NCBI GenBank assembly: GCA_964016885.1
Contig: OZ024748.1
Coordinates: 17,670,001-17,734,000 of the forward strand
Direction of reading: 5' to 3'
Source of the DNA: Eledone cirrhosa
Lineage: Eukaryota
DNA: 64,000 nt
How positions within the stretch are numbered: the stretch's first letter is position 1; each line of letters begins with the position of its first letter. Of the stretch, positions 6,818-57,092 are shown in pieces. Made by a program: the position numbers and the translations under genes. Below the pieces are notes generated by a model. That model saw only the letters and a program-made list of their open reading frames with translations, did not search any database and was not told where the DNA came from.

Positions 6818-7097
6818 TGTTTACTCGAGAGAAGGCTACGTTGGTATGGACACGTGATGCGCATGAAAGTCGATAGCTGTATAACAAAGTGCAGGGCAAT
6901 AAAGATAGACGGTAGTCACGGAATAGGCAGACCTAGAAAAACCTGGGACGAGCTGATAAACTCCGACATCACACACTTACACCTCTCCAAGACAATGTCA
7001 CTGGACCGAGACCTTTGGCGGTACTCAGTAACAGAGAAGACCCGCCTTACCTAAATATATAGTAAAACCTACTCCAGCCAGTAGGCATCTCTAACAA
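6818..7097 (+). pseudogene. 5'-truncated RTE-clade LINE 3' end
   Basis: Translates [15 protein letters not shown]...GRPRKTW...DRDLWR...* (stop at 7054), the typical RTE ORF C-terminus. Confidence 0.8.
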
Positions 7098-8066
7098 AAT
7101 ATCTGCTTTATGTATTGTATACCTAATTAACATATACTAATTAACATATACTATTGAAATAAATATATAATTTTTAACTTAGTTAACATATAATTTATAT
7201 GCTACTACCGATGTAATACTTTATTTTATTTTTATTTGGGTTTCTTTTCCCTATTATTAACTTTAATTTAGTTATAATGTAATTAATAATCTACTACTGT
7301 TTGACTTCATAATTCTGCTTCAAATATTATAAACCTAACTAATTTACACCTTGGAAATCAATATGTTGACTATCTTTGGTTTAGTTGACATATGATTAAT
7401 GGTATACTTTTTTATTTTGTGATGCATAGATTTCGTATTTCCTAGCATTGAAAATATGTAAGAACATACATTGAATTAAGATATGGAAAATATTATAGGT
7501 TTCTTGAAACATATATTTACTTTGATCCCCTTCTCCAAACCCCCCCCTTTCCCCCATACTATTATCATCTGTTTTTGTAAGTGTATATGTATGAATTTGG
7601 GTAGATGGGTGTCTATATAGTTTTTTTTTTGGTATTTTTTTTTTTTTTTGGTATTTATTTCTAGATATAAAAATACATATATGAGCATGTAAATATGAAT
7701 GTAAGATTGAGTGTGTATATATGATTGTACATACATATGTATGTATATGTATGTATATATATGTATTATATATGTACGTGTATGTGAATGTGTGGTATAT
7801 ATATGTGTAGGTATATGTATATATGTGTGCGTATGTGTATGCTTATATATAGGAATATATATGTGTGTATATATGTATATATGTATATGCGTGTTTGCAT
7901 GTATGTGTATATGGGTTCTGTATATATTTGTATGTCTCTCTATTTATATGTTTATCTTCGTATCTATGTGATATATGTGTGTGTGTGTGCATGTATGCAT
8001 ATGTATGTGTTTATGTGTGTTTGTATGTGTGTGTGTGTATATATATGTATGTATTTGCGCACACTC

Positions 8067-8104
<38 letters not shown>

Positions 8105-8192
8105 GAGTGTGTATGTGTGTCTGTATGTGTGTGCGTGTGTATATATGTGTATATATATATATATGTGTATGTATGTGTATGTGTGTGTATAT

Positions 8193-8236
<44 letters not shown>

Positions 8237-8375
8237 ATATAGGTGTCTATGTGTGAATATATGTCTTTATTCGTATGTGTGTATTTATATATGTTTATAT
8301 TTAGGTGTATGTATGTATGTGTATGTATGTATGTATATGTATGTGTATGTATGTATATGTGTATATGTGTGTATA

Positions 8376-8412
<37 letters not shown>

Positions 8413-8504
8413 CTTTATTATTATTGTAATATAACTTATGTGTATATGTGTATAAGTGAGGTTGTGTATGTATATATACTATGTGTATATATAAGGGTAA
8501 TGAA

Positions 8505-8535
<31 letters not shown>

Positions 8536-8634
8536 CATGTCTGTATTTTATGTGCGTGTGTATATATATATATATATGTGTATGTGTGTATGTATGTATG
8601 TATGTATGCATATATGTGTACGTGTGTGTATGTT

Positions 8635-8682
<48 letters not shown>

Positions 8683-8793
8683 TGGATGTTTGTATGTGTT
8701 TTCATGGTGGTATGAGTGTGGGATATATATGTTTATGTATAAGTATATGTATGTGTATGTATATATATATGAGTCTATGTGTGTGTGTGTATA

Positions 8794-8842
<49 letters not shown>

Positions 8843-9964
8843 ATGTGTGTATGTGTTGCGCGTGTGTGTGTCCGTATTTTTATCTTTTTATCTTTTTATA
8901 TGTGTATGTGTATGTTCGTGTAAATGTATGTGTGTGTATGACAGTATAGGTATGTGTGTATGTATGTATGTGTAGATATCTCTATGTGCGCGTACATGTA
9001 CGTATGTGTATGTATATCTGTATGCGTATGTACATTATATTATATGTAATATATTTTATTGTTTTTATTTTTTTATTTTTCATAATTTATAGATACATTT
9101 ATATTAGGCTGTCTGTCTGACAACCTAATACTGACCCCTCCCCCCCCCTCCCACCTAATTTCTGTATCTTGATCTTGAAATGTGCGTACCAGTGTGTTTA
9201 TGTGAGTGACTTAATTTCTATTTGCTTATGATTTTATATCCACATATATAAATGTGAGTGGGGGGTGTGTGTGTGTTTGTGTGTTCGTGGTTATGTGTAT
9301 ATTTATATATATACGCACATGTATGTGTGATTATACTGATATGTGTGAGTATGAAAAAAATATATTTATATGCTTGACTACATAAGTATCATTGCGTTTC
9401 TTATCAGCGCATTAAGCTTACAGAGATATTAACCTTGACATTTTTTATTTGCATCCATCTTTTTAGTATGCACATACATATTATACACACATTATTGTAA
9501 AATGTGTGTAGGGTTTTACATGTATATACACACACCAAACTGCTTTTTAACCCTTTGTGTTTTCATTGGTCAATTTTGAACTGATATTTTGAATTGTTGT
9601 TATTATCAATAAATATACTTCATTATTTCTGAAGACGGCGTATATATGTGTTAGGTATGTATATTTAATCTTGATAATTTGTATAATTTTGTATAATTTT
9701 GTACATAGATCTGTTAAATATGCATACCAATTATAGCACATATATGCCCTAGAAACGATCGTTAAATAGTGAACTTTTTTTGTTTAATATAAGGAATTGT
9801 TTGTTCATTATTTGTTTAATATTTTATCTTGACTCTGTATACCGTTTATCTTTCACCGAAATTGGATTTTCATTACATCTCTTCTTTCCATGATATCCGG
9901 AATACATTGAGTTCTTCATACGGATTGGACACTACCGTAAACTCTTGGTAGATTTATCTACATA
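7098..9964 (+). repeat. 5' pseudo-LTR of the PLE
   Basis: AATATCTGCTTTATG...GGTAGATTTATCTACATA repeated at 13295-16152; offset drifts only from 6197 to 6188. Confidence 0.93.
9619..9773 (+). ncRNA. Type I hammerhead ribozyme with extended stem II (pLTR copy 1)
   Basis: Stem I TTCATTATTT/AAATAGTGAA (10 bp); CTGAAGA 9629-9635; stem II 9637-9668 pairs with 9714-9748; GAAAC-GATC-GTT 9752-9763. Confidence 0.75.
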
Positions 9965-10116
9965 ATTTTGCTCCTATTTTCACGGAAATATTCGTATTTT
10001 TGTACTGTATGTGTGTATTAATTTTATATTTATGTATATACATATATATATGTATGATTTTGTAAACCCATATACATTTAGTTGAGCTCTTTCAATTGTC
10101 CATCATCCATATCACA

Positions 10117-12558
10117 ATGGAAAAACAATATTTAGGAACCTCCTTAAAAAACATACCAATACCTTCTAAGGACGACTTCTTACTCCTTATGATTCAGAAA
10201 ACTAATAATTTTATCAGAAGGGTTAGATGGAGAGCCTACCACTTTGATAGAAAATCTAAACAAGCAGATCGGAAATATATGTATGATTTCAACACTTACA
10301 AGAATCCACCACACAACTTTTTACTTGAAGACTTCGAGAAAGACCTTTTTAATTTAATTAAACATCTCAAATTTAAAAAGTATAAATCCGTCTTTCAAAA
10401 GGACCTTGATTCTACCCTATTGGACCTAAAAAAGTCTAAAAAAATCCATGTCCACTCGGACAAAACTGGTAACTTGTATCATATGGATATTGAACATTAT
10501 AATGAGTTCATATATAAAGAACTCAGAAAAAGTTATAAAAAATCTAATAATGCGTCACTCACCAATATCAACAACAAAACACACAACATAGTAAAAAAAC
10601 TAAATATTGAAGATAGAACTGAACCTTTGGCATTGAGAAGTCCACACTTCAACCTGAAAGATCACAAATCTAACTTTAACTCTAATCCTTCTATTAGACT
10701 TATATGTCCCTCCAAATCAGATATTGGAATAATTAGCAAAAAAATTTTAGATAGAGTCATCCCACAAATAAGAAAATACGTTATTTTACCACTCTGGGAA
10801 AATACCTCCCAGGTAATTAATTGGTTTAAAAATATTAGGTGTAAATCTTCTGCTTCTTTCCTACAGTTTGATATAGATAACTATTATTCTTCTATATCAC
10901 CCATACTCCTGAACAAAGCATTAATATTTGCTAAAAATAGATCTAATTTAACTTCGGATGACATTAACATTATTACACATGCTAGACAAACACTTATTGA
11001 ATTTCAGAATGAATACTGGACCAGAAACACTTATAGTAATCTTTTTGATATTACTATGGGTTCAAGCGATTCTGCCCAAATTACTGATCTTGTGGGCCTC
11101 TTTCTCCTTTTCAACATAAATGCCTCTTTTCCCCACCTCAAAGGTGGTTTATATCGTGATGACTGTCTTCTTCTTTCTAACAACCTTAGCCTTTCAGAAA
11201 TCGAAAAAAACAAAAAGCATATTAGAACTTTCCTTAAGGACTATTATAATCTTAATATTACTTTTGAAAAAACAAGTAAAGTAGTAAATTTCCTAGATAT
11301 AACTTTAGATTTAGCTACGGGTATATACCAACCTTACCATAAACCTAACCAAAACTTACATTACATACACTCACAATCTAATCACCCTAAATCTATCCTT
11401 AAAAACCTTGCATATAATATATCACTTAGAATTTCTAACCTTTCTTCTAACCAAGATGTATTTGATAAAAATGCGACCTTTTATAATGAAGCTCTAGATA
11501 GAAGTGGCCACAAAAATAGATTAGAGTATATAACTTCTACTAAAAATACTGAAAACATACAGCATAATATTACCAACAAACACCAAATGAAAGGTACACA
11601 CCTAAATGCCACCCACAGTATACCCCAAAATACTAAATCTTCTAATATAAAGTATAGTAACCCTCAAAAAACTACTCATCATAAGACTATAATAAATATT
11701 AATAATAAAACTCCTAATAAAAAAGATAAAACACCTAAATCTACAAATATAACTAAAAATAGTTGTGGTGAGATCATTAACATTATTCCTCCTAGTAAAA
11801 ATCATGATACAACATATAAAAATAATAAAAATAATAAACAACATAGAAACCGTAATAGACGAGTTACTTGGTATAATGCTCCTTTTAATTTACAAGTTAA
11901 GGATAATATTGCTAAAAAATTTTTTTATATCCTTGAGAAAAACTTCCCGCCAAACCACAAATACCATCAAATCTTAAATAGGTCTACAGTTAAATTCTCA
12001 TATTCTACAACAAATAACATAAAACAAAATATAAGTGCATATAATGCATATAAATGTAAGAAAACTATAAGTATACCACCAGTACATCAAATTAACAATA
12101 ATATCTCCTCAAATACAGAATTAACGAAAGGATGTAACTGTAGAAACAAAACAAACTGCCCATTAAAAGGGAATTGTCTTGTTAACAACATAGTCTATAA
12201 ATGTAATGTTAAAACTAAAGATTCTATTTGCTCATATATAGGAGCTACCTCTAACAATTTTAAGACAAGGTATAATACCCACAAACATAGCTTTAAAAAT
12301 GCCGCACTGGCTAATACAACATCTCTAGCAGAAAAAATCAATAGTTATAAAAATAAAAATATAAAATATGATTTGACCTGGAGTGTGCTCAAAAGAGCCA
12401 CCCCTTATCAAAATAATAGAAAGGAATGTAGATTATGTTCCCAAGAACTATTTGAAATAATGAAGTCTAGGGATATCTTATTAAATAAAAGACAGGAATT
12501 AATTATATCGTGTAATCATAAACTAAAAAAAACATTTAAATATTATAAACCTAATTAA
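10117..12558 (+). CDS. PLE polyprotein: reverse transcriptase plus GIY-YIG endonuclease (813 aa from first ATG)
   Basis: SLKNIPIPSK N-terminus, SDKT, FDIDNYYSSI (motif A), TMGSSDSAQI (B), YRDD (C), FLDITL, YHKP..SNHP thumb, CNCRNKTNCPLKGNC linker, IVY...YIG..T...F..R...H, CRLC..E...LN.R.E; no stops or frameshifts. Confidence 0.95.
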   Translation: MEKQYLGTSLKNIPIPSKDDFLLLMIQKTNNFIRRVRWRAYHFDRKSKQADRKYMYDFNTYKNPPHNFLLEDFEKDLFNLIKHLKFKKYKSVFQKDLDSTLLDLKKSKKIHVHSDKTGNLYHMDIEHYNEFIYKELRKSYKKSNNASLTNINNKTHNIVKKLNIEDRTEPLALRSPHFNLKDHKSNFNSNPSIRLICPSKSDIGIISKKILDRVIPQIRKYVILPLWENTSQVINWFKNIRCKSSASFLQFDIDNYYSSISPILLNKALIFAKNRSNLTSDDINIITHARQTLIEFQNEYWTRNTYSNLFDITMGSSDSAQITDLVGLFLLFNINASFPHLKGGLYRDDCLLLSNNLSLSEIEKNKKHIRTFLKDYYNLNITFEKTSKVVNFLDITLDLATGIYQPYHKPNQNLHYIHSQSNHPKSILKNLAYNISLRISNLSSNQDVFDKNATFYNEALDRSGHKNRLEYITSTKNTENIQHNITNKHQMKGTHLNATHSIPQNTKSSNIKYSNPQKTTHHKTIININNKTPNKKDKTPKSTNITKNSCGEIINIIPPSKNHDTTYKNNKNNKQHRNRNRRVTWYNAPFNLQVKDNIAKKFFYILEKNFPPNHKYHQILNRSTVKFSYSTTNNIKQNISAYNAYKCKKTISIPPVHQINNNISSNTELTKGCNCRNKTNCPLKGNCLVNNIVYKCNVKTKDSICSYIGATSNNFKTRYNTHKHSFKNAALANTTSLAEKINSYKNKNIKYDLTWSVLKRATPYQNNRKECRLCSQELFEIMKSRDILLNKRQELIISCNHKLKKTFKYYKPN

Positions 12559-13294
12559 TAACATTATTCTAGAATTTAATTTAATTTAAATGTTAGTTAA
12601 CCTATAAATTTAATTTAATTAATATTTTATTACAGATGAGAAAATATTATGTAATCATTAATTTTGAAAAACCTTTAAATATTACTAATATATATTCAGT
12701 AATTTAATTTATAGATTAATTTTAACTTATTTTAACCTTTTATTATAATTTTTTAATTTAGTTTAACCTTTTATTATAAAATTTTTTTTATTATAATTCT
12801 TTTACAGATAAAATATAACAAAATAATATCATGTATCCTATGACGGAGAAAGAATTTTTAGTATTATTGACCTAATTAATATACATTTTGGAAATATATT
12901 TATTATTTGGTTTTAGCTTTAATCAACCTAAAACTTTAATTTTAATTTTAATTTGCTTAAAATTAGTATCCTTGTACAGACGAATTGCAGAATTTCATGT
13001 AATCATAGAATGGGATGTGTTTTTGGATATATACCTAGTTAATATATTCTGTGCAAATTTTTTGAAAAAGATATGTATATCTATATGTATATGTATATGT
13101 GTGTATTGTATGTGTATCTGTATGTATATTTATGTGACTATATATGTATGTATGTGTGTATATATATGTATATATATATATATATATGTGTATGTATATG
13201 TATATGTATGTGTATGTGTATGTATATGTATGTGTATGCGTATTAATTTTGATTTTTATTTGCATATAATTATATTATGCTATTGATGAAATAC

Positions 13295-14382
13295 AATATC
13301 TGCTTTATGTATTGTATACCTAATTAACATATACTAATTAACATATACTATTGAAATAAATATATAATTTTTAACTTAGTTAACATATAATTTATATGCT
13401 ACTACCGATGTAATACTTTATTTTATTTTTATTTGGGTTTCTTTTCCCTATTATTAACTTTAATTTAGTTATAATGTAATTAATAATCTACTACTGTTTG
13501 ACTTCATAATTCTGCTTCAAATATTATAAACCTAACTAATTTACACCTTGGAAATCAATATGTTGACTATCTTTGGTTTAGTTGACATATGATTAATGGT
13601 ATACTTTTTTATTTTGTGATGCATAGATTTCGTATTTCCTAGCATTGAAAATATGTAAGAACATACATTGAATTAAGATATGGAAAATATTATAGGTTTC
13701 TTGAAACATATATTTACTTTGATCCCCTTCTCCAAACCCCCCCCTTTCCCCCATACTATTATCATCTGTTTTTGTAAGTGTATATGTATGAATTTGGGTA
13801 GATGGGTGTCTATATAGTTTTTTTTTTGGTATTTTTTTTTTGGTATTTATTTCTAGATATAAAAATACATATATGAGCATGTAAATATGAATGTAAGATT
13901 GAGTGTGTATATATGATTGTACATACATATGTATGTATATGTATGTATATATATGTATTATATATGTACGTGTATGTGAATGTGTGGTATATATATGTGT
14001 AGGTATATGTATATATGTGTGCGTATGTGTATGCTTATATATAGGAATATATATGTGTGTATATATGTATATATGTATATGCGTGTTTGCATGTATGTGT
14101 ATATGGGTTCTGTATATATTTGTATGTCTCTCTATTTATATGTTTATCTTCGTATCTATGTGATATATGTGTGTGTGTGTGCATGTATGCATATGTATGT
14201 GTTTATGTGTGTTTGTATGTGTGTGTGTGTATATATATGTATGTATTTGCGCACACTCACATACATATATATATATATATATATATATGTATGTGAGTGT
14301 GTATGTGTGTCTGTATGTGTGTGCGTGTGTATATATGTGTATATATATATATATGTGTATGTATGTGTATGTGTGTGTATAT

Positions 14383-14426
<44 letters not shown>

Positions 14427-14565
14427 ATATAGGTGTCTATGTGTGAATATATGTCTTTATTCGTATGTGTGTATTTATATATGTTTATATTTAGGTGTAT
14501 GTATGTATGTGTATGTATGTATGTATATGTATGTGTATGTATGTATATGTGTATATGTGTGTATA

Positions 14566-14602
<37 letters not shown>

Positions 14603-14694
14603 CTTTATTATTATTGTAATATAACTTATGTGTATATGTGTATAAGTGAGGTTGTGTATGTATATATACTATGTGTATATATAAGGGTAATGAA

Positions 14695-14725
<31 letters not shown>

Positions 14726-14824
14726 CATGTCTGTATTTTATGTGCGTGTGTATATATATATATATATGTGTATGTGTGTATGTATGTATGTATGTATGCA
14801 TATATGTGTACGTGTGTGTATGTT

Positions 14825-14866
<42 letters not shown>

Positions 14867-14981
14867 CATCTGGATGTTTGTATGTGTTTTCATGGTGGTA
14901 TGAGTGTGGGATATATATGTTTATGTATAAGTATATGTATGTGTATGTATATATATATGAGTCTATGTGTGTGTGTGTATA

Positions 14982-15030
<49 letters not shown>

Positions 15031-16146
15031 ATGTGTGTATGTGTTGCGCGTGTGTGTGTCCGTATTTTTATCTTTTTATCTTTTTATATGTGTATGTGTA
15101 TGTTCGTGTAAATGTATGTGTGTGTATGACAGTATAGGTATGTGTGTATGTATGTATGTGTAGATATCTCTATGTGCGCGTACATGTACGTATGTGTATG
15201 TATATCTGTATGCGTATGTACATTATATTATATGTAATATATTTTATTGTTTTTATTTTTTTATTTTTCATAATTTATAGATACATTTATATTAGGCTGT
15301 CTGTCTGACAACCTAATACTGACCCCTCCCCCCCCCTCCCACCTAATTTCTGTATCTTGATCTTGAAATGTGCGTACCAGTGTGTTTATGTGAGTGACTT
15401 AATTTCTATTTGCTTATGATTTTATATCCACATATATAAATGTGAGTGGGGGGTGTGTGTGTGTTTGTGTGTTCGTGGTTATGTGTATATTTATATATAT
15501 ACGCACATGTATGTGTGATTATACTGATATGTGTGAGTATGAAAAAAATATATTTATATGCTTGACTACATAAGTATCATTGCGTTTCTTATCAGCGCAT
15601 TAAGCTTACAGAGATATTAACCTTGACATTTTTTATTTGCATCCATCTTTTTAGTATGCACATACATATTATACACACATTATTGTAAAATGTGTGTAGG
15701 GTTTTACATGTATATACACACACCAAACTGCTTTTTAACCCTTTGTGTTTTCATTGGTCAATTTTGAACTGATATTTTGAATTGTTGTTATTATCAATAA
15801 ATATACTTCATTATTTCTGAAGACGGCGTATATATGTGTTAGGTATGTATATTTAATCTTGATAATTTGTATAATTTTGTATAATTTTGTACATAGATCT
15901 GTTAAATATGCATACCAATTATAGCACATATATGCCCTAGAAACGATCGTTAAATAGTGAACTTTTTTTGTTTAATATAAGGAATTGTTTGTTCATTATT
16001 TGTTTAATATTTTATCTTGACTCTGTATACCGTTTATCTTTCACCGAAATTGGATTTTCATTACATCTCTTCTTTCCATGATATCCGGAATACATTGAGT
16101 TCTTCATACGGATTGGACACTACCGTAAACTCTTGGTAGATTTATC

Positions 16147-16152
<6 letters not shown>
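13295..16152 (+). repeat. 3' pseudo-LTR of the PLE
   Basis: Direct repeat of 7098-9964, followed immediately by (TA)n. Confidence 0.93.
15807..15961 (+). ncRNA. Type I hammerhead ribozyme with extended stem II (pLTR copy 2)
   Basis: Same sequence as 9619-9773 at offset 6188. Confidence 0.75.
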
Positions 16153-26595: not shown

Positions 26596-27149
26596 ATACA
26601 ATATATTAACAAATGGAAACTATATTTATAAAACCATATTTATTTCATTATACATATTTCAAGGACACCAAAGCAAATTATGGTGCGCTTTCATCAGATA
26701 AAATATAATTGTTTCTACTTTAGGCACAAGGCCAGCAATTATCCAGTGCATTACTGGTACTTTATTTTATCGACGCTGTAAGGATGAAAGGCAAAGTAAA
26801 CCTCGGCGGGATTTGAACTCAGACCGTAAAGGGACATAACTATGCTGGAAAGCATGGCGTCTGATTCTCTACCGATACTGCCAATCCACCGCCCATCAGA
26901 TAAAATATAATATAGATCAGTTTTATAAACAAATATTGACATACCCTTAAAGAATGTGACCATGTCATGAGCTTCCAACCGACATGGTCGCATTCTTTAA
27001 GGGTATGTCAATATTTGTTTATAAAACTGATCTATATTATATTTTATCTGATGAAAGCGCACCATAATTTGCTTTGGTGTCCTTGAAATATGTATAATGA
27101 AATAAATATGGTTTTATAAATATAGTTTCCATTTGTTAATATATTGTAT
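26596..27149. mobile_element. Fold-back element with hammerhead-like motif in both arms; left arm interrupted by a SINE
   Basis: Arms meet at spacer 26967-26980; CTGATGA-AAGCGCACCA...TGGTGTCCTT-GAAA at 27048-27088. Confidence 0.75.
26710..26893 (-). mobile_element. SINE family A with 18-bp target-site duplication
   Basis: TSD CATCAGATAAAATATAAT at 26692-26709 and 26894-26911. Confidence 0.9.
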
Positions 27150-41959: not shown

Positions 41960-42185
41960 TTTCACATCACGCATAACACAACTACCAAGTGAAAGACCTG
42001 CTAATCAAGTCCTGTATTGGTACCTTCATGGAAAAGGCTGTAGAGGAGGGTCGAAGATGATCTGGTGGTGACAGACAATCAACACTCCTGAAACCCATCA
42101 ACAAGAGCTGGAATGATGTATTGATAGATGCAACTGACCTTGGTCATTGGAGCACTTTGGCTGCCTCGTGTGTCTCAAGACATGG
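41960..42185 (+). pseudogene. Decayed RTE LINE C-terminus, progenitor of the 71-bp satellite
   Basis: ITQLPSERPANQVLYWYLHGKGCRGGSKMIW, frameshift, then LLKPINKSWNDVLIDATDLGHWSTLAASCVSRHG. Confidence 0.7.
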
Positions 42186-45100
42186 GATGTATTGATAGAT
42201 GCAACTGACCTTGGTCATTGGAGCACTTTGGCTGGCTCGTGTGTCTCAAGACATGGGATGTATTGATAGATGCAACTGACCTTGGTCATTGTAGCACTTT
42301 GGCTGCCTCATGTGTCTCAAGATGTTGGATGTATTGATAGATGCAACTGACCTTGGTCATTGGAGCACTGTGGCTGGCTCATGTGTCTCAAGACATGGGA
42401 TGTATTGATAGATGCAATTGACCTTGGTCATTGTAGCACTTTGGCTGCCTCATGTGTCTCAAGACGTGGGATGTATTGATAGATGTAACTGACCGTGGTC
42501 ATTGTAGCACTTTGGCTGCCTCATATGTCTCAAGACATGGGATGTATTGATAGATGTAACTGACCGTGGTCATTGTAGCACTGTGGCTGCCTCATATGTC
42601 TCAAGACATGGGATGTATTGATAGATGTAACTGACCGTGGTCATTGTAGCACTGTGGCTGGCTCATGTGTCTCAAGACATGGGATGTATTGATAGATGCA
42701 ATTGACCTTGGTCATTGTAGCACTGTGGCTGCCTCATATGTCTCAAGACATGGGATGTATTGATAGATGCAATTGACCTTGGTCATTGGAGCACTGTGGC
42801 TGGCTCATGTGTCTCAAGACATGGGATGTATTGATAGATGCAATTGACCTTGGTCATTGGAGCACTGTGGCTGGCTCATGTGTCTCAAGATGTTGGATGT
42901 ATTGATAGATGCAACTGACCTTGGTCATTGTAGCACTTTGGCTGCCTCATCTGTCTCAAGACATGGGATGTATTGATAGATGCAACTGACCTTGGTCATT
43001 GTAGCACTTTGGCTGCCTCATGTGTCTCAAGACATGGGATGTATTGATAGATGCAACTGACCTTGGTCATTGTAGCACTTTGGCTGCCTCATGTGTCTCA
43101 AGACATGGGATGTATTGATAGATATAACTGACCTTGGTCATTGTAGCACTTTGGCTGCCTCATGTGTCTCAAGACATGGGATGTATTGATAGATGCAACT
43201 GACCGTGGTCATTGGAGCACTTTGGCTGCCTCATATGTCTCAAGACATGGGATGTATTGATAGATGCAATTGACCTTGGTCATTGTAGCACTTTGGCTGC
43301 CTCATGTGTCTCAAGACATGGGATGTATTGATAGATGCAACTGACCTTGGTCATTGTAGCACTGTGGCTGGCTCATGTGTCTCAAGATGTTGGATGTATT
43401 GATAGATGCAACTGACCTTGGTCATTGTAGCACTTAGGCTGCCTCATATGTCTCAAGACATGGGATGTATTGATAGATGCAACTGACCTTGGTCATTGGA
43501 GCACTTTGGCTGCCTCATGTGTCTCAAGACATGGGATGTATTGATAGATGCAACTGACCTTGGTCATTGTAGCACTTTGGCTGCCTCATGTGTCTCAAGA
43601 CATGGGATGTATTGATAGATGCAACTGACCTTGGTCATTGTAGCACTTTGGCTGCCTCATGTGTCTCAAGACATGGGATGTATTGATAGATGCAACTGAC
43701 CTTGGTCATTGTAGCACTGTGGCTGGCTCATGTGTCTCAAGACATGGGATGTATTGATAGATGCAACTGACCTTGGTCATTGTAGCACTTTGGCTGCCTC
43801 ATGTGTCTCAAGACATGGGATGTATTGATAGATGCAACTGACCTTGGTCATTGTAGCACTTTGGCTGCCTCATGTGTCTCAAGACATGGGATGTATTGAT
43901 AGATGCAACTGACCTTGGTCATTGTAGCACTTTGGCTGCCTCATGTGTCTCAAGACATGGGATGTATTGATAGATGTAACTGACCTTGGTCATTGTAGCA
44001 CTTTGGCTGCCTCATGTGTCTCAAGACATGGGATGTATTGATAGATGCAACTGACCTTGGTCATTGTAGCACTTTGGCTGCCTCATGTGTCTCAAGACAT
44101 GGGATGTATTGATAGATGCAACTGACCTTGGTCATTGTAGCACTGTGGCTGCCTCATGTGTCTCAAGATGTTGGATGTATTGATAGATGCAACTGACCTT
44201 GGTCATTGTAGCACTTTGGCTGCCTCATGTGTCTCAAGACATGGGATGTATTGATAGATGTAACTGACCTTGGTCATTGTAGCACTTTGGCTGCCTCATG
44301 TGTCTCAAGACATGGGATGTATTGATAGATGTAACTGACCTTGGTCATTGTAGCACTTTGGCTGCCTCATGTGTCTCAAGACATGGGATGTATTGATAGA
44401 TGCAACTGACCTTGGTCATTGTAGCACTGTGGCTGCCTCATGTGTCTCAAGATGTTGGATGTATTGATAGATGCAACTGACCTTGGTCAATGTAGCACTT
44501 TGGCTGCCTCATGTGTCTCAAGACATGGGATGTATTGATAGATGTAACTGACCTTGGTCATTGTAGCACTTTGGCTGCCTCATGTGTCTCAAGACATGGG
44601 ATGTATTGATAGATGCAACTGACCTTGGTCATTGTAGCACTTTGGCTGCCTCATGTATCTCAAGACATGGGATGTATTGATAGATGTAACTGACCTTGGT
44701 CATTGTAGCACTTTGGCTGCCTCATGTGTCTCAAGACATGGGATGTATTGATAGATGCAACTGACCTTGGTCATTGTAGCACTTTGGCTCCCTCATGTGT
44801 CTCAAGACATGGGATGTATTGATAGATGCAACTGACCTTGGTCATTGTAGCACTGTGGCTGGCTCATGTGTCTCAAGATGTTGGATGTATTGATAGATGC
44901 AACTGACCTTGGTCATTGTAGCACTTTGGCTCCCTCATGTGTCTCAAGACATGGGATGTATTGATAGATGCAACTGACCTTGGTCATTGGAGCACTTTGG
45001 CTGCCTCATGTGTCTCAAGACATGGGATGTATTGATAGATGCAACTGACCTTGGTCATTGTAGCACTGTGGCTGCCTCATGTGTCTCAAGATGTTGGATG

Positions 45101-48100
45101 TATTGATAGATGCAACTGACCTTGGTCATTGTAGCACTTTGGCTCCCTCATGTGTCTCAAGACATGGGATGTATTGATAGATGCAATTGACCTTGCTCAT
45201 TGTAGCACTTTGGCTCCCTCATGTGTCTCAAGACATGGGATGTATTGATAGATGCAATTGACCTTGGTCATTGTAGCACTGTGGCTCCCTCATGTGTCTC
45301 AAGATGTTGGATGTATTGATAGATGCAATTGACCTTGGTCATTGTAGCACTTTGGCTGCCTCATGTGTCTCAAGATGTTGGATGTATTGATAGATGCAAT
45401 TGACCTTGGTCATTGTAGCACTGTGGCTGGCTCGTGTGTCTCAAGACATGGGATGTATTGATAGATGCAACTGACCTTGGTCATTGTAGCACTGTGGCTG
45501 CCTCATATGTCTCAAGATGTTGGATGTATTGATAGATGCAATTGACCTTGGTCATTGTAGCACTTTGGCTGCCTCATGTGTCTCAAGACATGGGATGTAT
45601 TGATAGATGCAATTGACCTTGGTCATTGTAGCACTTTGGCTCCCTCATGTGTCTCAAGATGTTGGATGTATTGATAGATGCAACTGACCTTGGTCATTGT
45701 AGCACTTTGGCTGCCTCATGTGTCTCAAGACATGGGATGTATTGATAGATGCAACTGACCTTGGTCATTGTAGCACTTTGGCTGCCTCATGTGTCTCAAG
45801 ACATGGGATGTATTGATAGATGCAATTGACCTTGGTCATTGTAGCACTTTGGCTGCCTCATGTGTCTCAAGACATGGGATGTATTGATAGATGCAACTGA
45901 CCTTGGTCATTGTAGCACTGTGGCTGCCTCATGTGTCTCAAGACATGGGATGTATTGATAGATGCAACTGACCTTGGTCATTGTAGCACTGTGGCTGCCT
46001 CATGTGTCTCAAGATGTTGGATGTATTGATAGATGCAACTGACCTTGGTCATTGTAGCACTGTGGCTGGCTCATGTGTCTCAAGACATGGGATGTATTGA
46101 TAGATGCAACTGACCGTGGTCATTGTAGCACTGTGGCTGGCTCATGTGTCTCAAGACATGGGATGTATTGATAGATGTAACTGACCGTGGTCATTGTAGC
46201 ACTTTGGCTGCCTCATATGTCTCAAGACATGGGATGTATTGATAGATGTAACTGACCGTGGTCATTGTAGCACTTTGGCTGCCTCATGTGTCTCAAGACA
46301 TGGGATGTATTGATAGATGCAACTGACCTTGGTCATTGTAGCACTGTGGCTGGCTCATGTGTCTCAAGATGTTGGATGTATTGATAGATGCAACTGACCT
46401 TGGTCATTGTAGCACTTTGGCTCCCTCATGTGTCTCAAGACATGGGATGTATTGATAGATGCAACTGACCTTGGTCATTGGAGCACTTTGGCTGCCTCAT
46501 GTGTCTCAAGACATGGGATGTATTGATAGATGCAACTGACCTTGGTCATTGTAGCACTGTGGCTGCCTCATGTGTCTCAAGATGTTGGATGTATTGATAG
46601 ATGCAACTGACCTTGGTCATTGTAGCACTTTGGCTCCCTCATGTGTCTCAAGACATGGGATGTATTGATAGATGCAATTGACCTTGGTCATTGTAGCACT
46701 TTGGCTCCCTCATGTGTCTCAAGACATGGGATGTATTGATAGATGCAATTGACCTTGGTCATTGTAGCACTGTGGCTCCCTCATGTGTCTCAAGATGTTG
46801 GATGTATTGATAGATGCAATTGACCTTGGTCATTGTAGCACTTTGGCTGCCTCATGTGTCTCAAGATGTTGGATGTATTGATAGATGCAATTGACCTTGG
46901 TCATTGTAGCACTGTGGCTGGCTCGTGTGTCTCAAGACATGGGATGTATTGATAGATGCAACTGACCTTGGTCATTGTAGCACTGTGGCTGCCTCATATG
47001 TCTCAAGATGTTGGATGTATTGATAGATGCAATTGACCTTGGTCATTGTAGCACTTTGGCTGCCTCATGTGTCTCAAGACATGGGATGTATTGATAGATG
47101 CAACTGACCTTGGTCATTGTAGCACTTTGGCTGCCTCATGTGTCTCAAGACATGGGATGTATTGATAGATGCAACTGACCTTGGTCATTGTAGCACTTTG
47201 GCTGCCTCATGTGTCTCAAGACATGGGATGTATTGATAGATGCAATTGACCTTGGTCATTGTAGCACTTTGGCTCCCTCATGTGTCTCAAGATGTTGGAT
47301 GTATTGATAGATGCAACTGACCTTGGTCATTGTAGCACTTTGGCTGCCTCATGTGTCTCAAGACATGGGATGTATTGATAGATGCAACTGACCTTGGTCA
47401 TTGTAGCACTTTGGCTGCCTCATGTGTCTCAAGACATGGGATGTATTGATAGATGCAATTGACCTTGGTCATTGTAGCACTTTGGCTGCCTCATGTGTCT
47501 CAAGACATGGGATGTATTGATAGATGCAAATGACCTTGGTCATTGTAGCACTGTGGCTGCCTCATGTGTCTCAAGACATGGGATGTATTGATAGATGCAA
47601 CTGACCTTGGTCATTGTAGCACTGTGGCTGCCTCATGTGTCTCAAGATGTTGGATGTATTGATAGATGCAACTGACCTTGGTCATTGTAGCACTGTGGCT
47701 GGCTCATGTGTCTCAAGACATGGGATGTATTGATAGATGCAACTGACCGTGGTCATTGTAGCACTGTGGCTGGCTCATGTGTCTCAAGACATGGGATGTA
47801 TTGATAGATGTAACTGACCGTGGTCATTGTAGCACTTTGGCTGCCTCATATGTCTCAAGACATGGGATGTATTGATAGATGTAACTGACCGTGGTCATTG
47901 TAGCACTTTGGCTGCCTCATGTGTCTCAAGACATGGGATGTATTGATAGATATAACTGACCTTGGTCATTGTAGCACTTTGGCTGCCTCATATGTCTCAA
48001 GACATGGGATGTATTGATAGATGTAACTGACCGTGGTCATTGGAGCACTTTGGCTGCCTCATGTGTCTCAAGACATGGGATGTATTGATAGATGCAACTG

Positions 48101-51100
48101 ACCTTGGTCATTGTAGCACTTTGGCTGCCTCATGTGTCTCAAGACATGGGATGTATTGATAGATGCAACTGACCTTGGTCATTGTAGCACTGTGGCTGGC
48201 TCATGTGTCTCAAGATGTTGGATGTATTGATAGATGCAACTGACCTTGGTCATTGTAGCACTTTGGCTGCCTCATGTGTCTCAAGATGTTGGATGTATTG
48301 ATAGATGCAATTGACCTTGGTCATTGTAGCACTGTGGCTGCCTCATGTGTCTCAAGATGTTGGATGTATTGATAGATGCAACTGACCGTGGTCATTGTAG
48401 CACTGTGGCTCCCTCATGTGTCTCAAGACATGGGATGTATTGATAGATGCAACTGACCTTGGTCATTGTAGCACTTTGGCTCCCTCATGTGTCTCAAGAC
48501 ATGGGATGTATTGATAGATGCAACTGACCTTGGTCATTGTAGCACTTTGGCTGCCTCATGTGTCTCAAGACATGGGATGTATTGATAGATGCAACTGACC
48601 TTGGTCATTGTAGCACTTTGGCTGCCTCATGTGTCTCAAGACATGGGATGTATTGATAGATGCAATTGACCTTGGTCATTGTAGCACTTTGGCTGCCTCA
48701 TGTGTCTCAAGATGTTGGATGTATTGATAGATGCAATTGACCTTGGTCATTGTAGCACTGTGGCTGCCTCATGTGTCTCAAGATGTTGGATGTATTGATA
48801 GATGCAACTGACCTTGGTCATTGTAGCACTGTGGCTGCCTCATGTGTCTCAAGATGTTGGATGTATTGATAGATGCAACTGACCTTGGTCATTGTAGCAC
48901 TGTGGCTGCCTCATGTGTCTCAAGATGTTGGATGTATTGATAGATGCAACTGACCTTGGTCATTGTAGCACTGTGGCTGGCTCATGTGTCTCAAGATGTT
49001 GGATGTATTGATAGATGCAACTGACCTTGGTCATTGTAGCACTGTGGCTGGCTCATGTGTCTCAAGATGTTGGATGTATTGATAGATGCAACTGACCGTG
49101 GTCATTGTAGCACTTTGGCTGCCTCATGTGTCTCAAGACATGGGATGTATTGATAGATGCAACTGACCTTGGTCATTGTAGCACTTTGGCTGCCTCATGT
49201 GTCTCAAGACATGGGATGTATTGATAGATGCAACTGACCGTGGTCATTGTAGCACTTTGGCTCCCTCATGTGTCTCAAGACATGGGATGTATTGATAGAT
49301 GCAATTGACCTTGGTCATTGTAGCACTGTGGCTCCCTCATGTGTCTCAAGATGTTGGATGTATTGATAGATGCAATTGACCTTGGTCATTGTAGCACTGT
49401 GGCTGCCTCATGTGTCTCAAGATGTTGGATGTATTGATAGATGCAACTGACCTTGGTCATTGTAGCACTGTGGCTGGCTCATGTGTCTCAAGATGTTGGA
49501 TGTATTGATAGATGCAACTGACCTTGGTCATTGTAGCACTTTGGCTCCCTCATGTGTCTCAAGACATGGGATGTATTGATAGATGCAACTGACCTTGGTC
49601 ATTGTAGCACTTTGGCTGCCTCATGTGTCTCAAGACATGGGATGTATTGATAGATGCAATTGACCTTGGTCATTGTAGCACTTTGGCTGCCTCATGTGTC
49701 TCAAGATGTTGGATGTATTGATAGATGCAATTGACCTTGGTCATTGTAGCACTTAGGCTGCCTCATGTGTCTCAAGATGTTGGATGTATTGATAGATGCA
49801 ACTGACCTTGGTCATTGTAGCACTGTGGCTGCCTCATGTGTCTCAAGATGTTGGATGTATTGATAGATGCAACTGACCTTGGTCATTGTAGCACTTTGGC
49901 TGCCTCATGTGTCTCAAGATGTTGGATGTATTGATAGATGCAACTGACCTTGGTCATTGTAGCACTGTGGCTGCCTCATGTGTCTCAAGATGTTGGATGT
50001 ATTGATAGATGCAACTGACCTTGGTCATTGTAGCACTGTGGCTGCCTCATGTGTCTAAAGATGTTGGATGTATTGATAGATGCAACTGACCTTGGTCATT
50101 GTAGCACTGTGGCTGCCTCATGTGTCTCAAGATGTTGGATGTATTGATAGATGCAACTGACCTTGGTCATTGTAGCACTGTGGCTGCCTCATGTGTCTAA
50201 AGATGTTGGATGTATTGATAGATGCAACTGACCTTGGTCATTGTAGCACTTTGGCTGCCTCATGTGTCTCAAGATGTTGGATGTATTGATAGATGCAACT
50301 GACCTTGGTCATTGTAGCACTTTGGCTCCCTCATGTGTCTCAAGACATGGGATGTATTGATAGATGCAACTGACCTTGGTCATTGTAGCACTTTGGCTGC
50401 CTCATGTGTCTCAAGACATGGGATGTATTGATAGATGCAATTGACCTTGGTCATTGTAGCACTTTGGCTGCCTCATGTGTCTCAAGATGTTGGATGTATT
50501 GATAGATGCAATTGACCTTGGTCATTGTAGCACTGTGGCTGCCTCATGTGTCTCAAGATGTTGGATGTATTGATAGATGCAACTGACCTTGGTCATTGTA
50601 GCACTGTGGCTGCCTCATGTGTCTCAAGATGTTGGATGTATTGATAGATGCAACTGACCTTGGTCATTGTAGCACTGTGGCTGGCTCATGTGTCTCAAGA
50701 TGTTGGATGTATTGATAGATGCAACTGACCGTGGTCATTGTAGCACTTTGGCTGCCTCATGTGTCTCAAGACATGGGATGTATTGATAGATGCAACTGAC
50801 CTTGGTCATTGTAGCACTTTGGCTGCCTCATGTGTCTCAAGACATGGGATGTATTGATAGATGCAACTGACCGTGGTCATTGTAGCACTTTGGCTCCCTC
50901 ATGTGTCTCAAGACATGGGATGTATTGATAGATGCAATTGACCTTGGTCATTGTAGCACTGTGGCTCCCTCATGTGTCTCAAGATGTTGGATGTATTGAT
51001 AGATGCAATTGACCTTGGTCATTGTAGCACTGTGGCTGCCTCATGTGTCTCAAGATGTTGGATGTATTGATAGATGCAACTGACCTTGGTCATTGTAGCA

Positions 51101-54100
51101 CTGTGGCTGGCTCATGTGTCTCAAGATGTTGGATGTATTGATAGATGCAACTGACCTTGGTCATTGTAGCACTTTGGCTCCCTCATGTGTCTCAAGACAT
51201 GGGATGTATTGATAGATGCAACTGACCTTGGTCATTGTAGCACTTTGGCTGCCTCATGTGTCTCAAGACATGGGTTGTATTGATAGATGCAATTGACCTT
51301 GGTCATTGTAGCACTTTGGCTGCCTCATGTGTCTCAAGATGTTGGATGTATTGATAGATGCAATTGACCTTGGTCATTGTAGCACTTAGGCTGCCTCATG
51401 TGTCTCAAGATGTTGGATGTATTGATAGATGCAACTGACCTTGGTCATTGTAGCACTGTGGCTGCCTCATGTGTCTCAAGATGTTGGATGTATTGATAGA
51501 TGCAACTGACCTTGGTCATTGTAGCACTTTGGCTGCCTCATGTGTCTCAAGATGTTGGATGTATTGATAGATGCAACTGACCTTGGTCATTGTAGCACTG
51601 TGGCTGCCTCATGTGTCTCAAGATGTTGGATGTATTGATAGATGCAACTGACCTTGGTCATTGTAGCACTGTGGCTGCCTCATGTGTCTAAAGATGTTGG
51701 ATGTATTGATAGATGCAACTGACCTTGGTCATTGTAGCACTGTGGCTGCCTCATGTGTCTCAAGATGTTGGATGTATTGATAGATGCAACTGACCTTGGT
51801 CATTGTAGCACTGTGGCTGCCTCATGTGTCTAAAGATGTTGGATGTATTGATAGATGCAACTGACCTTGGTCATTGTAGCACTGTGGCTGCCTCATGTGT
51901 CTCAAGATGTTGGATGTATTGATAGATGCAACTGACCTTGGTCATTGTAGCACTTTGGCTCCCTCATGTGTCTCAAGACATGGGATGTATTGATAGATGC
52001 AACTGACCTTGGTCATTGTAGCACTTTGGCTGCCTCATGTGTCTCAAGACATGGGATGTATTGATAGATGCAGTTGACCTTGGTCATTGTAGCACTTTGG
52101 CTGCCTCATGTGTCTCAAGATGTTGGATGTATTGATAGATGCAATTGACCTTGGTCATTGTAGCACTGTGGCTGCCTCATGTGTCTCAAGATGTTGGATG
52201 TATTGATAGATGTAACTGACCTTGGTCATTGTAGCACTGTGGCTGCCTCATGTGTCTCAAGATGTTGGATGTATTGATAGATGCAACTGACCTTGGTCAT
52301 TGTAGCACTGTGGCTGGCTCATGTGTCTCAAGATGTTGGATGTATTGATAGATGCAACTGACCTTGGTCATTGTAGCACTTTGGCTCCCTCATGTGTCTC
52401 AAGACATGGGATGTATTGATAGATGCAACTGACCTTGGTCATTGTAGCACTTTGGCTGCCTCATGTGTCTCAAGACATGGGATGTATTGATAGATGCAAC
52501 TGACCTTGGTCATTGTAGCACTTTGGCTGCCTCATGTGTCTCAAGACATGGGATGTATTGAAAGATGCAATTGACCTTGGTCATTGTAGCACTTTGGCTC
52601 CCTCATGTGTCTCAAGACATGGGATGTATTGATAGATGCAATTGACCTTGGTCATTGTAGCACTGTGGCTCCCTCATGTGTCTCAAGATGTTGGATGTAT
52701 TGATAGATGCAATTGACCTTGGTCATTGTAGCACTGTGGCTGCCTCATGTGTCTCAAGATGTTGGATGTATTGATAGATGCAATTGACCTTGGTCATTGT
52801 AGCACTGTGGCTGCCTCATGTGTCTCAAGATGTTGGATGTATTGATAGATGCAACTGACCTTGGTCATTGTAGCACTTTGGCTCCCTCATGTGTCTCAAG
52901 ACATGGGATGTATTGATAGATGCAACTGACCTTGGTCATTGTAGCACTTTGGCTGCCTCATGTGTCTCAAGACATGGGATGTATTGATAGATGCAATTGA
53001 CCTTGGTCATTGTAGCACTTTGGCTCCCTCATGTGTCTCAAGATGTTGGATGTATTGATAGATGCAACTGACCTTGGTCATTGTAGCACTGTGGCTGCCT
53101 CATGTGTCTCAAGATGTTGGATGTATTGATAGATGCAACTGACCTTGGTCATTGTAGCACTTTGGCTGCCTCATGTGTCTCAAGACATGGGATGTATTGA
53201 TAGATGCAACTGACCTTGGTCATTGTAGCAATTTGGCTCCCTCATGTGTCTCAAGACATGGGATGTATTGATAGATGCAACTGACCTTGGTCATTGTAGC
53301 ACTGTGGCTGGCTCATGTGTCTCAAGATGTTGGATGTATTGATAGATGCAACTGACCTTGGTCATTGTAGCACTTTGGCTGCCTCATATGGCTCAAGACA
53401 TGGGATGTATTGATAGATGCAACTGAGCTTGGTCATTGGAGCACTTTGGCTGCCTCATGTGTCTCAAGACATGGGATGTATTGATAGATGCAACTGACCT
53501 TGGTCATTGGAGCACTTTGGCTGTCTCATGTGTCTCAAGACATGGGATGTATTGATAGATGCAACTGACCTTGGTCATTGGAGCACTTTGGCTGCCTCAT
53601 GTGTCTCAAGACATGGGATGTATTGATAGATGCAACTGACCTTGGTCATTGTAGCACTTTGGCTGCCTCATGTGTCTCAAGACATGGGATGTATTGATAG
53701 ATGCAACTGACCTTGGTCATTGTAGCAATGTGGCTGCCTCATGTGTCTCAAGACATGGGATGTATTGATAGATGCAACTGACCTTGGTCATTGTAGCACT
53801 GTGGCTGCCTCATGTGTCTCAAGACATGGGATGTATTGATAGATGCAACTGACCTTGGTCATTGGAGCACTTTGGCTCCCTCATGTGTCTCAAGACATGG
53901 GATGTATTGATAGATGCAACTGACCTTGGTCATTGGAGCACTTTGGCTGCCTCATGTGTCTCAAGACATGGGATGTATTGATAGATATAACTGACCTTGG
54001 TCATTGTAGCACTTTGGCTGCCTCATATGTCTTAAGACATGGGATGTATTGATAGATGTAACTGACCGTGGTCATTGGAGCACTTTGGCTGCCTCATGTG

Positions 54101-57092
54101 TCTCAAGACATGGGATGTATTGATAGATGCAACTGACCTTGGTCATTGGAGCACTTTGGCTGCCTCATGTGTCTCAAGACATGGGATGTATTGATAGATG
54201 CAACTGACCTTGGTCATTGTAGCACTTTGGCTGCCTCATGTGTCTCAAGACATGGGATGTATTGATAGATGCAACTGACCTTGGTCATTGTAGCAATTTG
54301 GCTCCCTCATGTGTCTCAAGACATGGGATGTATTGATAGATGCAACTGACCTTGGTCATTGTAGCACTGTGGCTGGCTCATGTGTCTCAAGATGTTGGAT
54401 GTATTGATAGATGCAACTGACCTTGGTCATTGTAGCACTTTGGCTGCCTCATATGTCTCAAGACATGGGATGTATTGATAGATGCAACTGACCTTGGTCA
54501 TTGGAGCACTTTGGCTGCCTCATGTGTCTCAAGACATGGGATGTATTGATAGATGCAACTGACCTTGGTCATTGGAGCACTTTGGCTGTCTCATGTGTCT
54601 CAAGACATGGGATGTATTGATAGATGCAACTGACCTTGGTCATTGGAGCACTTTGGCTGCCTCATGTGTCTCAAGACATGGGATGTATTGATAGATGCAA
54701 CTGACCTTGGTCATTGTAGCACTTTGGCTGCCTCATGTGTCTCAAGACATGGGATGTATTGATAGATGCAACTGACCTTGGTCATTGTAGCAATGTGGCT
54801 GCCTCATGTGTCTCAAGACATGGGATGTATTGATAGATGCAACTGACCTTGGTCATTGGAGCACTTTGGCTGCCTCATGTGTCTCAAGACATGGGATGTA
54901 TTGATAGATGCAACTGACCTTGGTCATTGGAGCACTTTGGCTCCCTCATGTGTCTCAAGACATGGGATGTATTGATAGATGCAACTGACCTTGGTCATTG
55001 GAGCACTTTGGCTGCCTCATGTGTCTCAAGACATGGGATGTATTGATAGATATAACTGACCTTGGTCATTGTAGCACTTTGGCTGCCTCATATGTCTTAA
55101 GACATGGGATGTATTGATAGATGTAACTGACCGTGGTCATTGGAGCACTTTGGCTGCCTCATGTGTCTCAAGACATGGGATGTATTGATAGATGCAACTG
55201 ACCTTGGTCATTGGAGCACTTTGGCTGCCTCATGTGTCTCAAGACATGGGATGTATTGATAGATGCAACTGACCTTGGTCATTGTAGCACTTTGGCTGCC
55301 TCATGTGTCTCAAGACATGGGATGTATTGATAGATGCAACTGACCTTGGTCATTGTAGCAATTTGGCTCCCTCATGTGTCTCAAGACATGGGATGTATTG
55401 ATAGATGCAACTGACCTTGGTCATTGTAGCACTGTGGCTGGCTCATGTGTCTCAAGATGTTGGATGTATTGATAGATGCAACTGACCTTGGTCATTGTAG
55501 CACTTTGGCTGCCTCATATGTCTCAAGACATGGGATGTATTGATAGATGCAACTGACCTTGGTCATTGGAGCACTTTGGCTGCCTCATGTGTCTCAAGAC
55601 ATGGGATGTATTGATAGATGCAACTGACCTTGGTCATTGGAGCACTTTGGCTGTCTCATGTGTCTCAAGACATGGGATGTATTGATAGATGCAACTGACC
55701 TTGGTCATTGGAGCACTTTGGCTGCCTCATGTGTCTCAAGACATGGGATGTATTGATAGATGCAACTGACCTTGGTCATTGTAGCACTTTGGCTGCCTCA
55801 TGTGTCTCAAGACATGGGATGTATTGATAGATGCAACTGACCTTGGTCATTGTAGCAATGTGGCTGCCTCATGTGTCTCAAGACATGGGATGTATTGATA
55901 GATGCAACTGACCTTGGTCATTGTAGCACTGTGGCTGCCTCATGTGTCTCAAGACATGGGATGTATTGATAGATGCAACTGACCTTGGTCATTGGAGCAC
56001 TTTGGCTCCCTCATGTGTCTCAAGACATGGGATGTATTGATAGATGCAACTGACCTTGGTCATTGGAGCACTTTGGCTGCCTCATGTGTCTCAAGACATG
56101 GGATGTATTGATAGATATAACTGACCTTGGTCATTGTAGCACTTTGGCTGCCTCATATGTCTTAAGACATGGGATGTATTGATAGATGTAACTGACCGTG
56201 GTCATTGGAGCACTTTGGCTGCCTCATGTGTCTCAAGACATGGGATGTATTGATAGATGCAACTGACCTTGGTCATTGGAGCACTTTGGCTGCCTCATGT
56301 GTCTCAAGACATGGGATGTATTGATAGATGCAATTGACCTTGGTCATTGGAGCACTTTGGCTGCCTCATGTGTCTCAAGACATGGGATGTATTGATAGAT
56401 GCAACTGACCTTGGTCATTGGAGCACTTTGGCTGCCTCATATGTCTCAAGACATGGGATGTATTGATAGATGCAATTGACCTTGGTCATTGGAGCACTTT
56501 GGCTGCCTCATGTGTCTCAAGACATGGGATGTATTGATAGATGCAACTGACCTTGGTCATTGGAGCACTTTGGCTGCCTCATGTGTCTCAAGACATGGGA
56601 TGTATTGATAGATGCAATTGACCTTGGTCATTGGAGCACTTTGGCTGCCTCATGTGTCTCAAGACATGGGATGTATTGATAGATGCAACTGACCTTGGTC
56701 ATTGGAGCACTTTGGCTGCCTCATATGTCTCAAGACATGGGATGTATTGATAGATGCAATTGACCTTGGTCATTGGAGCACTTTGGCTGCCTCATGTGTC
56801 TCAAGACATGGGATGTATTGATAGATGCAACTGACCTTGGTCATTGGAGCACTTTGGCTGCCTCATGTGTCTCAAGACATGGGATGTATTGATAGATGCA
56901 ACTGACCTTGGTCATTGTAGCACTGTGGCTGGCTCATGTGTCTCAAGATGTTGGATGTATTGACAGATGCAACTGACCTTGGTCATTGTAGCACTGTGGC
57001 TGGCTCATGTGTCTCAAGATGTTGGATGTATTGATAGATGCAACTGACCGTGGTCATTGTAGCACTGTGGCTGGCTCATCTGTCTCAAGATG
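42115..57092 (+). repeat. 71-bp satellite, 211 units, with higher-order repeats
   Basis: Unit GATGTATTGATAGATGCAACTGACCTTGGTCATTGTAGCACTTTGGCTGCCTCATGTGTCTCAAGACATGG; first unit starts 42115, last starts 57025 (difference = 210 x 71). Confidence 0.98.

Follow-up and report, generated by a model that had tools for sequence, protein, structure and literature searches.

The pseudo-LTR of an Eledone cirrhosa Penelope-like element carries a type I hammerhead motif with a stem II of 116 nt

A first-pass annotation of 64,000 nt of Eledone cirrhosa DNA (the window, within which positions are numbered below) described a hammerhead ribozyme (HHR) in the pseudo-LTR (pLTR) of a Penelope-like element (PLE), with a palindromic stem III and an exceptionally long stem II. 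The locus raises the question of whether such an architecture is a genuine type I HHR motif, whether its long arm is maintained as RNA structure, and which part it might play in the propagation of the element.

The hammerhead motif and its host element

Analysis of the plus strand confirmed that 9619–9773 is a type I HHR motif in a PLE pLTR, and the letters reported for the 10-bp stem I, the CUGAAGA and GAAAC cores, the palindrome, and the GUU site were all found in place. Stem I is formed by 9619–9628 and 9764–9773, which pair over 10 bp with one U-G; its 5' strand has 10 nt, of which 7 would remain in an RNA starting at 9622. The catalytic core C3–A9 (CUGAAGA, 9629–9635) leads into the extended stem II insert at 9636–9751, for which about 110 nt had been claimed and 116 nt with 44 bp, including 6 G-U pairs, were measured. 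The following segment, 9752–9763, holds the GAA core, a 2-bp stem III with a GAUC loop, and the GUU triplet; the palindrome AACGAUCGUU (9754–9763) supplies stem III, and GAAAC lies at 9752–9756. From the sequence, the cut is predicted after U9763, at the end of GUU.

The core pattern CUGANGA...GAAA...UH is present around a three-way junction, and stems I, II, and III form with covariation, stem III having only 2 bp in a monomer. The tertiary C3–G8 pair is conserved or covaries, being U3–A8 in a related family (F5, see below). The consensus pair G10.1–C11.1 is absent from the window hammerhead, which has C.A instead; this pair is a consensus with known exceptions, since natural U.U (accessible parts of File S2 of PMC8557442 and of PMC3088659) and C.A (L456) examples exist. 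The window hammerhead has no loop near the core that could provide a loop I/loop II tertiary contact; a conserved C.C, which might or might not take its place, occurs at the fourth pair of stem II in 11 of 24 representatives. Apart from G10.1–C11.1, the motif has the sequence and structure of a type I HHR, and self-cleavage is predicted.

Folding of the hammerhead region gave −48.7 kcal/mol (z = −6.06), and 0 of 200 shuffles were as good. The insert alone reached −44.0 kcal/mol on the plus strand versus −24.6 kcal/mol on the reverse strand, an advantage of 19 kcal/mol. An Rfam scan of the window returned no match at the gathering score and no hammerhead even at E ≤ 10. Standard models thus do miss this hammerhead, as the annotation had foreseen for length-limited searches and as is expected given the 100-nt insert.

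The upstream pLTR is a 5'-truncated partial tandem copy (7096–9963, plus strand) that stops at the usual 3' end of the family, 9963. One full unit of 6188 nt follows (9964–16151, plus strand); its 3' region is long, rich in microsatellites, and terminates in (TA)n. The proposed pLTR setting holds. A second, identical hammerhead lies in the downstream pLTR at 15807–15961 (plus strand), 6188 nt away and matching over 301 of 301 columns, with the PLE open reading frame (ORF) between the two; it represents a potential dimer partner. The intact ORF (10117–12558, plus strand) encodes 813 aa from its ATG, a reverse transcriptase (RT) followed by a GIY-YIG-type nuclease, and includes the RT motif YRDD (11152) and the nuclease motifs VYK (12193) and YIG (12235). 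It was without a Pfam family match.

The element probably belongs to the Hydra clade, an assignment made by motifs rather than by a tree. The ORF motifs RWR (10225), DKT (10459), CxCx5C (12133), CxxC (12427), and CxH (12511), all on the plus strand, match the Hydra-clade definition in section 11 of PMC8557442, with RWR in place of RWK, and the partial tandem/inverted pLTR structure and the (TA)n insertion are likewise those of the clade. At 6.2 kb, the unit departs from the statement in that section that Hydra elements are generally shorter than 3 kb, a tendency and not a strict criterion. The Naiad clade was considered and rejected, the nuclease being C-terminal. Distant Hydra-type families (L275, L193, L266) have in common a TTGAGC motif located some 35 nt ahead of the ORF (10082–10090).

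All 150 scored ORF matches were 98–100% identical, most with an open 830-aa frame, and the family is young. Genome-wide (3.0 Gb), the core pattern had 12,132 matches versus 674 for the control (downstream anchor, 9736), and the family copy number is about 10,000. Four head-to-tail ORF-bearing units spaced about 6.7 kb apart were observed at each of two loci, G000:C1:183737167-183757790 and G000:C6:49530661-49551217.

Pairing in stems II and III

Non-canonical junctions, with an extra C after the core and CUA before GAAA, had also been described for this hammerhead. Such a slipped pairing requires G9746, which only 4 of the family's 56 distinct inserts possess, and these odd junctions were therefore ascribed to a register error. 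In the register without the slip, stem II directly abuts the core, its first positions being C.A (10.1/11.1), G-U, G-C, the conserved C.C (10.4/11.4), G-C, and U-G, and it then proceeds as a continuous helix. This register lies 2.3 kcal/mol above the minimum free energy in the window copy, yet it is the one that covaries, and its junctions are near canonical for Hydra-clade HHRs, in which a 10.1/11.1 mismatch is common. The GC-rich sister family F2 retains it through compensatory changes, and stem I of a sister family carries compensatory changes from A-U to G-C and from U-A to C-G.

In an alignment of 12 family representatives, pairing holds in 96.2% of 312 cells, compared with 26–48% in slid registers, and the covariation score was 0.311 versus 0.175, with 0 of 500 shuffles attaining the observed score; these tallies count sequences of related families, not independent events. 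Weaker measures on the same alignment were matched more often (both-side-changed pairs by 33 of 500 shuffles, pair types by 197 of 500), so that of five measures in all, two did not stand out clearly from the shuffles. An alignment-free examination of 24 representatives, in which two F5 members were scored at a coincidental CTGATGA inside stem II and counted as misses, gave 142 of 192 paired at the base of stem II versus 24–60% when shifted, and 125 of 168 paired versus 81.5 ± 7.9 in cross-family shuffles. Folding was weak in some families, with z near 0 in 4 of the 24. Among 96 haplotypes, 11 variable pairs toggle via G-U on the plus strand and 1 fits the minus strand only; four positions also show broken variants. 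This bias, together with the strand difference in fold energy of the insert, agrees with the earlier reading of the wobble deviations as plus-strand RNA structure. Loss of conservation among paralogous pLTRs would have refuted the annotation, and this computational check came out in favour of it: pairing is kept among them. The covariation shows that the 116-nt stem II is maintained under RNA-level pairing selection.

Within the insert, the apical internal loop GAU-N4-UGUA / UACA-UAG-AUC (plus strand) is conserved. A candidate 5'-splice-site-like AG/GUAUGU at 9653–9660 (plus strand) is paired inside stem II; no spliced copies were found for one candidate acceptor near 10085 paired with this donor, and the donor-like sequence was not seen in families F3, F4, and F7.

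Two further features bear on the active and dimeric folds. The 3–8 pair is formed solely in the active hammerhead fold. In family F5, whose core reads UUGACAA, U3–A8 replaces C3–G8 in 13 of 17 copies by hand count, a single evolutionary event. The F5 variant was not imposed by the search, because the pattern had matched a chance CTGATGA inside the F5 arm; F5 shares the C.A and C.C mismatches with the window family, and its ORF is 60–78% identical. Natural PLE HHRs with U3–A8 are described in the accessible text of PMC4209133, and the 3–8 pair is also treated as an active-fold feature in that of PMC11167929.

In stem III, self-complementarity of the two free loop letters was seen in 84 of 91 copies, with four different palindromes (AT in 64, GC in 10, TA in 8, and CG in 2). 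Because adjacent letters can pair in trans only, this self-complementarity fits the dimer model, in line with the proposal that the palindrome is of the kind found in dimer-acting PLE HHRs. The palindrome self-duplex was calculated at −11.8 kcal/mol, and the 8-mer has no monomer fold; families with 60-nt inserts mostly carry an added GCGC. A ViennaRNA cofold of two full copies returned arm-swapped stem II pairing and not the catalytic dimer.

Long-armed families and their known relatives

A genome search with relaxed stem II length, as the first-pass annotation had recommended, yielded 2273 matches for the pattern with a 76–106-nt insert versus 46 for the reversed pattern, and 1749 versus 38 with a 44–74-nt insert. 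Matches were examined (30 plus about 60 of the former pattern, 30 of the latter) and grouped by reading into seven families with 90–116-nt inserts and two with 60–61 nt. The arm sequences of the seven long-arm families are unrelated, and the F3 arm is branched. Same-strand PLE ORF matches were linked to F1, F2, F4, and F5, the F2 fragments being mostly 68–75% identical and the F4 match only 39%; none was found in the examined flanks of F3, F6, F7, or the 60-nt families. The long arm thus recurs in many families of this genome and is not a single oddity.

As a control, 77 related Hydra-type PLE loci from metagenomes were examined, of which 59 had a hammerhead match and 18 had none. The top insert measured 10–25 nt in 58 of the 59; the remaining top match, with 90 nt, lies inside an ORF, and its locus also has a 17-nt HHR. 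Since the credible HHRs of these loci have 10–25-nt inserts, the long arm is lineage-restricted as far as sampled.

Several other hammerhead-like repeats were observed. A second Hydra-type family of 713 aa in the same genome (L191–L220) has, as read by eye, an apparently short-armed hammerhead in its pLTR, whose core is the atypical CAGAAGA, whose stem II has 3 bp, and whose stem III is longer; in L193, for example, about 210 nt separate it from the downstream ORF match. F3 (L303, G000:C1:76543590-76546070; L319) has its branched stem II in repeats about 700–770 nt apart with no ORF nearby, a retrozyme-like arrangement, and the internal loop of its second hairpin resembles the F1 apical loop in flipped orientation. 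In the window, short-stem-II hammerhead-like cores of other repeats, some decayed, occur at 479, 31989, 61498, and 19403 (plus strand) and at 27476 and 1589 (minus strand), with an inverted pair at 27048 (plus) and 26697 (minus). A 71-nt unit is repeated about 211 times, at 92–97% identity, in a tandem array at about 42000–57000.

The closest known systems, as described in the portions of the sources available, share part of the features of the motif. The Hydra-clade PLE HHRs of Craig et al. 2021 (PMC8557442) are likewise of type I, in sense orientation in the pLTR, with palindromic stem III and frequent 10.1/11.1 mismatch, and their ORF motifs and (TA)n targets match; their listed stems II have 3–7 bp with loops of about 3–10 nt, compared with 116 nt and 44 bp here. 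The metazoan PLE min-HHRs of Cervera and de la Pena 2014 (PMC4209133) have the same weak palindromic stem III with a dimer model, the U3–A8 variant, a tandem pLTR context, and a circle model for tandems, but their "larger than usual" helix II has 7–8 bp, and no 40-bp arm is described in the text available. Similarly, the "long helix II" of PMC13725137 refers to 6–8 bp in the part available. Spike-moss PLE-X1 elements have non-canonical HHRs, marked as deviating in File S2 of PMC8557442, with an enlarged stem II region of about 50 nt; this is half the length found in the window, mostly loop, and confined to single families of endonuclease-less plant elements. The literature searched, some of it available only in part, contained no PLE hammerhead with a 40-bp stem II; Lunse et al. 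2017, which deals with dimeric variants of PLE HHRs, and the supplements of PMC8557442 and of bioRxiv could bear on novelty. Judged from sequence, the window hammerhead appears to be a real, selected, and new architectural variant of a known ribozyme–retroelement pairing, with catalysis predicted.

Copy boundaries and proposed mechanism

Among 97 copies sampled by the downstream anchor, 34 begin 4–8 nt upstream of CUGA, and 17 of these have A9622 as their first base. Another 41 continue upstream, 13 have their start past the core, and 9 begin elsewhere. The copies starting at −4 to −8 are short, and not one of these 34 reaches the ORF. The hot spot of 5' insertion junctions, TTC/ATT at 9622 on the plus strand (7 nt upstream of CUGA), is a probable transcription start. 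A non-native base directly precedes 9622 in 3105 genome matches, many copies form back-to-back inverted pairs, F2 has the same hot spot, and F4, F5, and F7 have some junctions there. Three public runs, composed of contigs of unknown kind and hence not evidence on expression, all showed a depth step at bin 9620 and contained no splice-like joint; a run from a second organism had the same palindromic junction. Base counts next to the −7 junction did not support a cap-derived G (10 of 39 at −8 versus 8 of 39 at −10).

The predicted cut site left few such traces. The native G three bases before it is missing in 109 of 8547 copies, and 10 of 30 inspected were point mutants, which leaves about 0.9% of copies starting at the cut site; these starts exceed background truncation slightly at most. 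Among 30 copies next to an ORF, 23 span the hammerhead and extend into upstream sequence; the other 7 begin downstream, one of them at the cut site. None of the 23 that reach −7 stops there (Fisher p = 7e-5, overstated because the 30 include members of the same tandem arrays and the window's own copy). The boundaries show that RNA cut only at the U9763 site is rarely retrotransposed.

A four-gamete scan for recombination at the cut site was confounded by misaligned, truncated 3' flanks, and cleavage at NUC/A9622 by an alternative fold was rejected on inspection, there being no complementary stem I or III. In fold-back junctions (L344, L346, L361, L366), a copy ending at −7 continues past the cut site via stem I complementarity. 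A tRNA-like SINE with an ATT tail, which may resemble cephalopod SINEs, is joined repeatedly at ATTATT (L165, L169–L173, L245, L197, L212) and exactly at the −7 site in 6 cases.

We consider that these data are probably best explained as a whole by a type I HHR with a selected 116-nt stem II, situated at the likely 5' end of the transcript, and cleaving slowly and only as a dimer. Transcription would start at about A9622 in the pLTR, in keeping with PLE start sites reported there (available text of PMC2377424 and PMC6765202), and would place the hammerhead at the very 5' end of the RNA. The cut after U9763 is predicted to be slow and to require that two copies associate via their palindromic stem III. 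Uncut RNA may be reverse-transcribed from an internal site near 9963 back to 9622, which would produce short hammerhead-only insertions of up to about 340 nt, often as inverted pairs; internal initiation has been reported for an Anolis PLE (PMC11167929, in the part available). Less firmly, the ORF-bearing partial tandems may derive from a template without an end at 9622. The simplest such template would be a unit-length circle, formed by end joining after the two pLTR hammerheads within a single RNA have cleaved as a dimer, as in the circle model of PMC4209133 (accessible text). A circle after dimeric cleavage fits the ORF-bearing tandems and would leave no junction, and read-through RNA or template jumping explains them equally well. 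The long arm, with its conserved C.C and apical internal loop, is most likely a binding or folding platform rather than part of catalysis.

The rarity of cut-site junctions means that single cuts are rare or unproductive; it agrees with slow dimer-dependent cleavage and also with little cleavage at all. The latter leads to a less likely account, in which the hammerhead shape is kept but hardly cuts, serving as a structured 5' leader bound by an element protein or host factors for stability, packaging, or RT positioning, with tandems arising via read-through or template jumps. The share of copies starting at the cut site, about 0.9%, suits this account. The C.A at 10.1/11.1, the 2-bp stem III, and the lack of a loop II contact near stem I are features that lower hammerhead activity, and they predict low activity here. 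Low PLE HHR activity was also reported in PMC4209133, and in Anolis Poseidon mutating the HHR left in vitro insertion unaffected, with no RNA reads terminating at the cut site (PMC11167929; available parts of both). Against a mere leader, the 3–8 pair and the loop III palindrome matter in active or dimeric folds only, and both covary.

It is more doubtful that the RNA end at 9622 is instead the downstream product of poly(A)-type 3'-end cleavage, protected by the hammerhead fold, which would leave the hammerhead reading unchanged. AATAAA ends 8 nt upstream of A9622 in the window family and in F2, the break falls at a CA, and the cap-derived G is without excess. An 8-nt spacing from signal to cut is short for a poly(A) site, F4 has junctions at about −7/−8 without AATAAA and with TATAAAA about 32 nt upstream, and the element's 3' ends lie at 9963, beyond AATAAA. 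The reported position of PLE starts within the pLTR (PMC2377424 and PMC6765202, as available) also speaks against it. A very improbable and largely refuted explanation is that the arm, AT-rich with short internal repeats in elements that produce many inverted junctions, is a neutral fold-back or hairpin insertion from RT error, with the hammerhead perhaps a relic: unrelated arms of similar length recur in seven families (one branched), compensatory changes and plus-strand G-U bias are present, and the internal mismatch and apical loop are conserved.

The short copies of the window family also recall the non-LTR retrozymes (PMC7229834; bioRxiv 10.64898/2026.07.22.740005; both as available), which are short, non-coding repeats with a type I HHR for which an origin from PLE pLTRs has been proposed. 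Retrozymes form tandem arrays with a canonical 4-bp stem II, whereas the copies described here are single or in inverted pairs and start at the HHR 5' strand and not at the cut site.

Taken jointly, the observations may tentatively be read as a radiation of long-armed HHRs (arms of 60–116 nt, linear or branched, in at least nine families with more than 14,000 pattern matches) invisible to current descriptors. The copy boundaries could then record two templates, uncut RNA from inside stem I giving short copies and dimer-cut, circularised unit RNA giving ORF tandems, with the arm acting as a protein- or splicing-controlled switch. If the two-template reading is true, the circle model of Penelope retrotransposition would gain direct support from genomic data.

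The finding indicates that Rfam and length-limited motif searches overlook whole families of eukaryotic hammerheads, so that PLEs reported as "lacking" an HHR may need rechecking with free stem II length. The boundary data render the role of the hammerhead in PLEs testable: they predict that RNA starts at 9622, that RNA cut only once is seldom used, and that circles are formed. The young, high-copy family provides an intact test element together with natural variants, namely U3–A8, four loop III palindromes, and arms of 60–116 nt.
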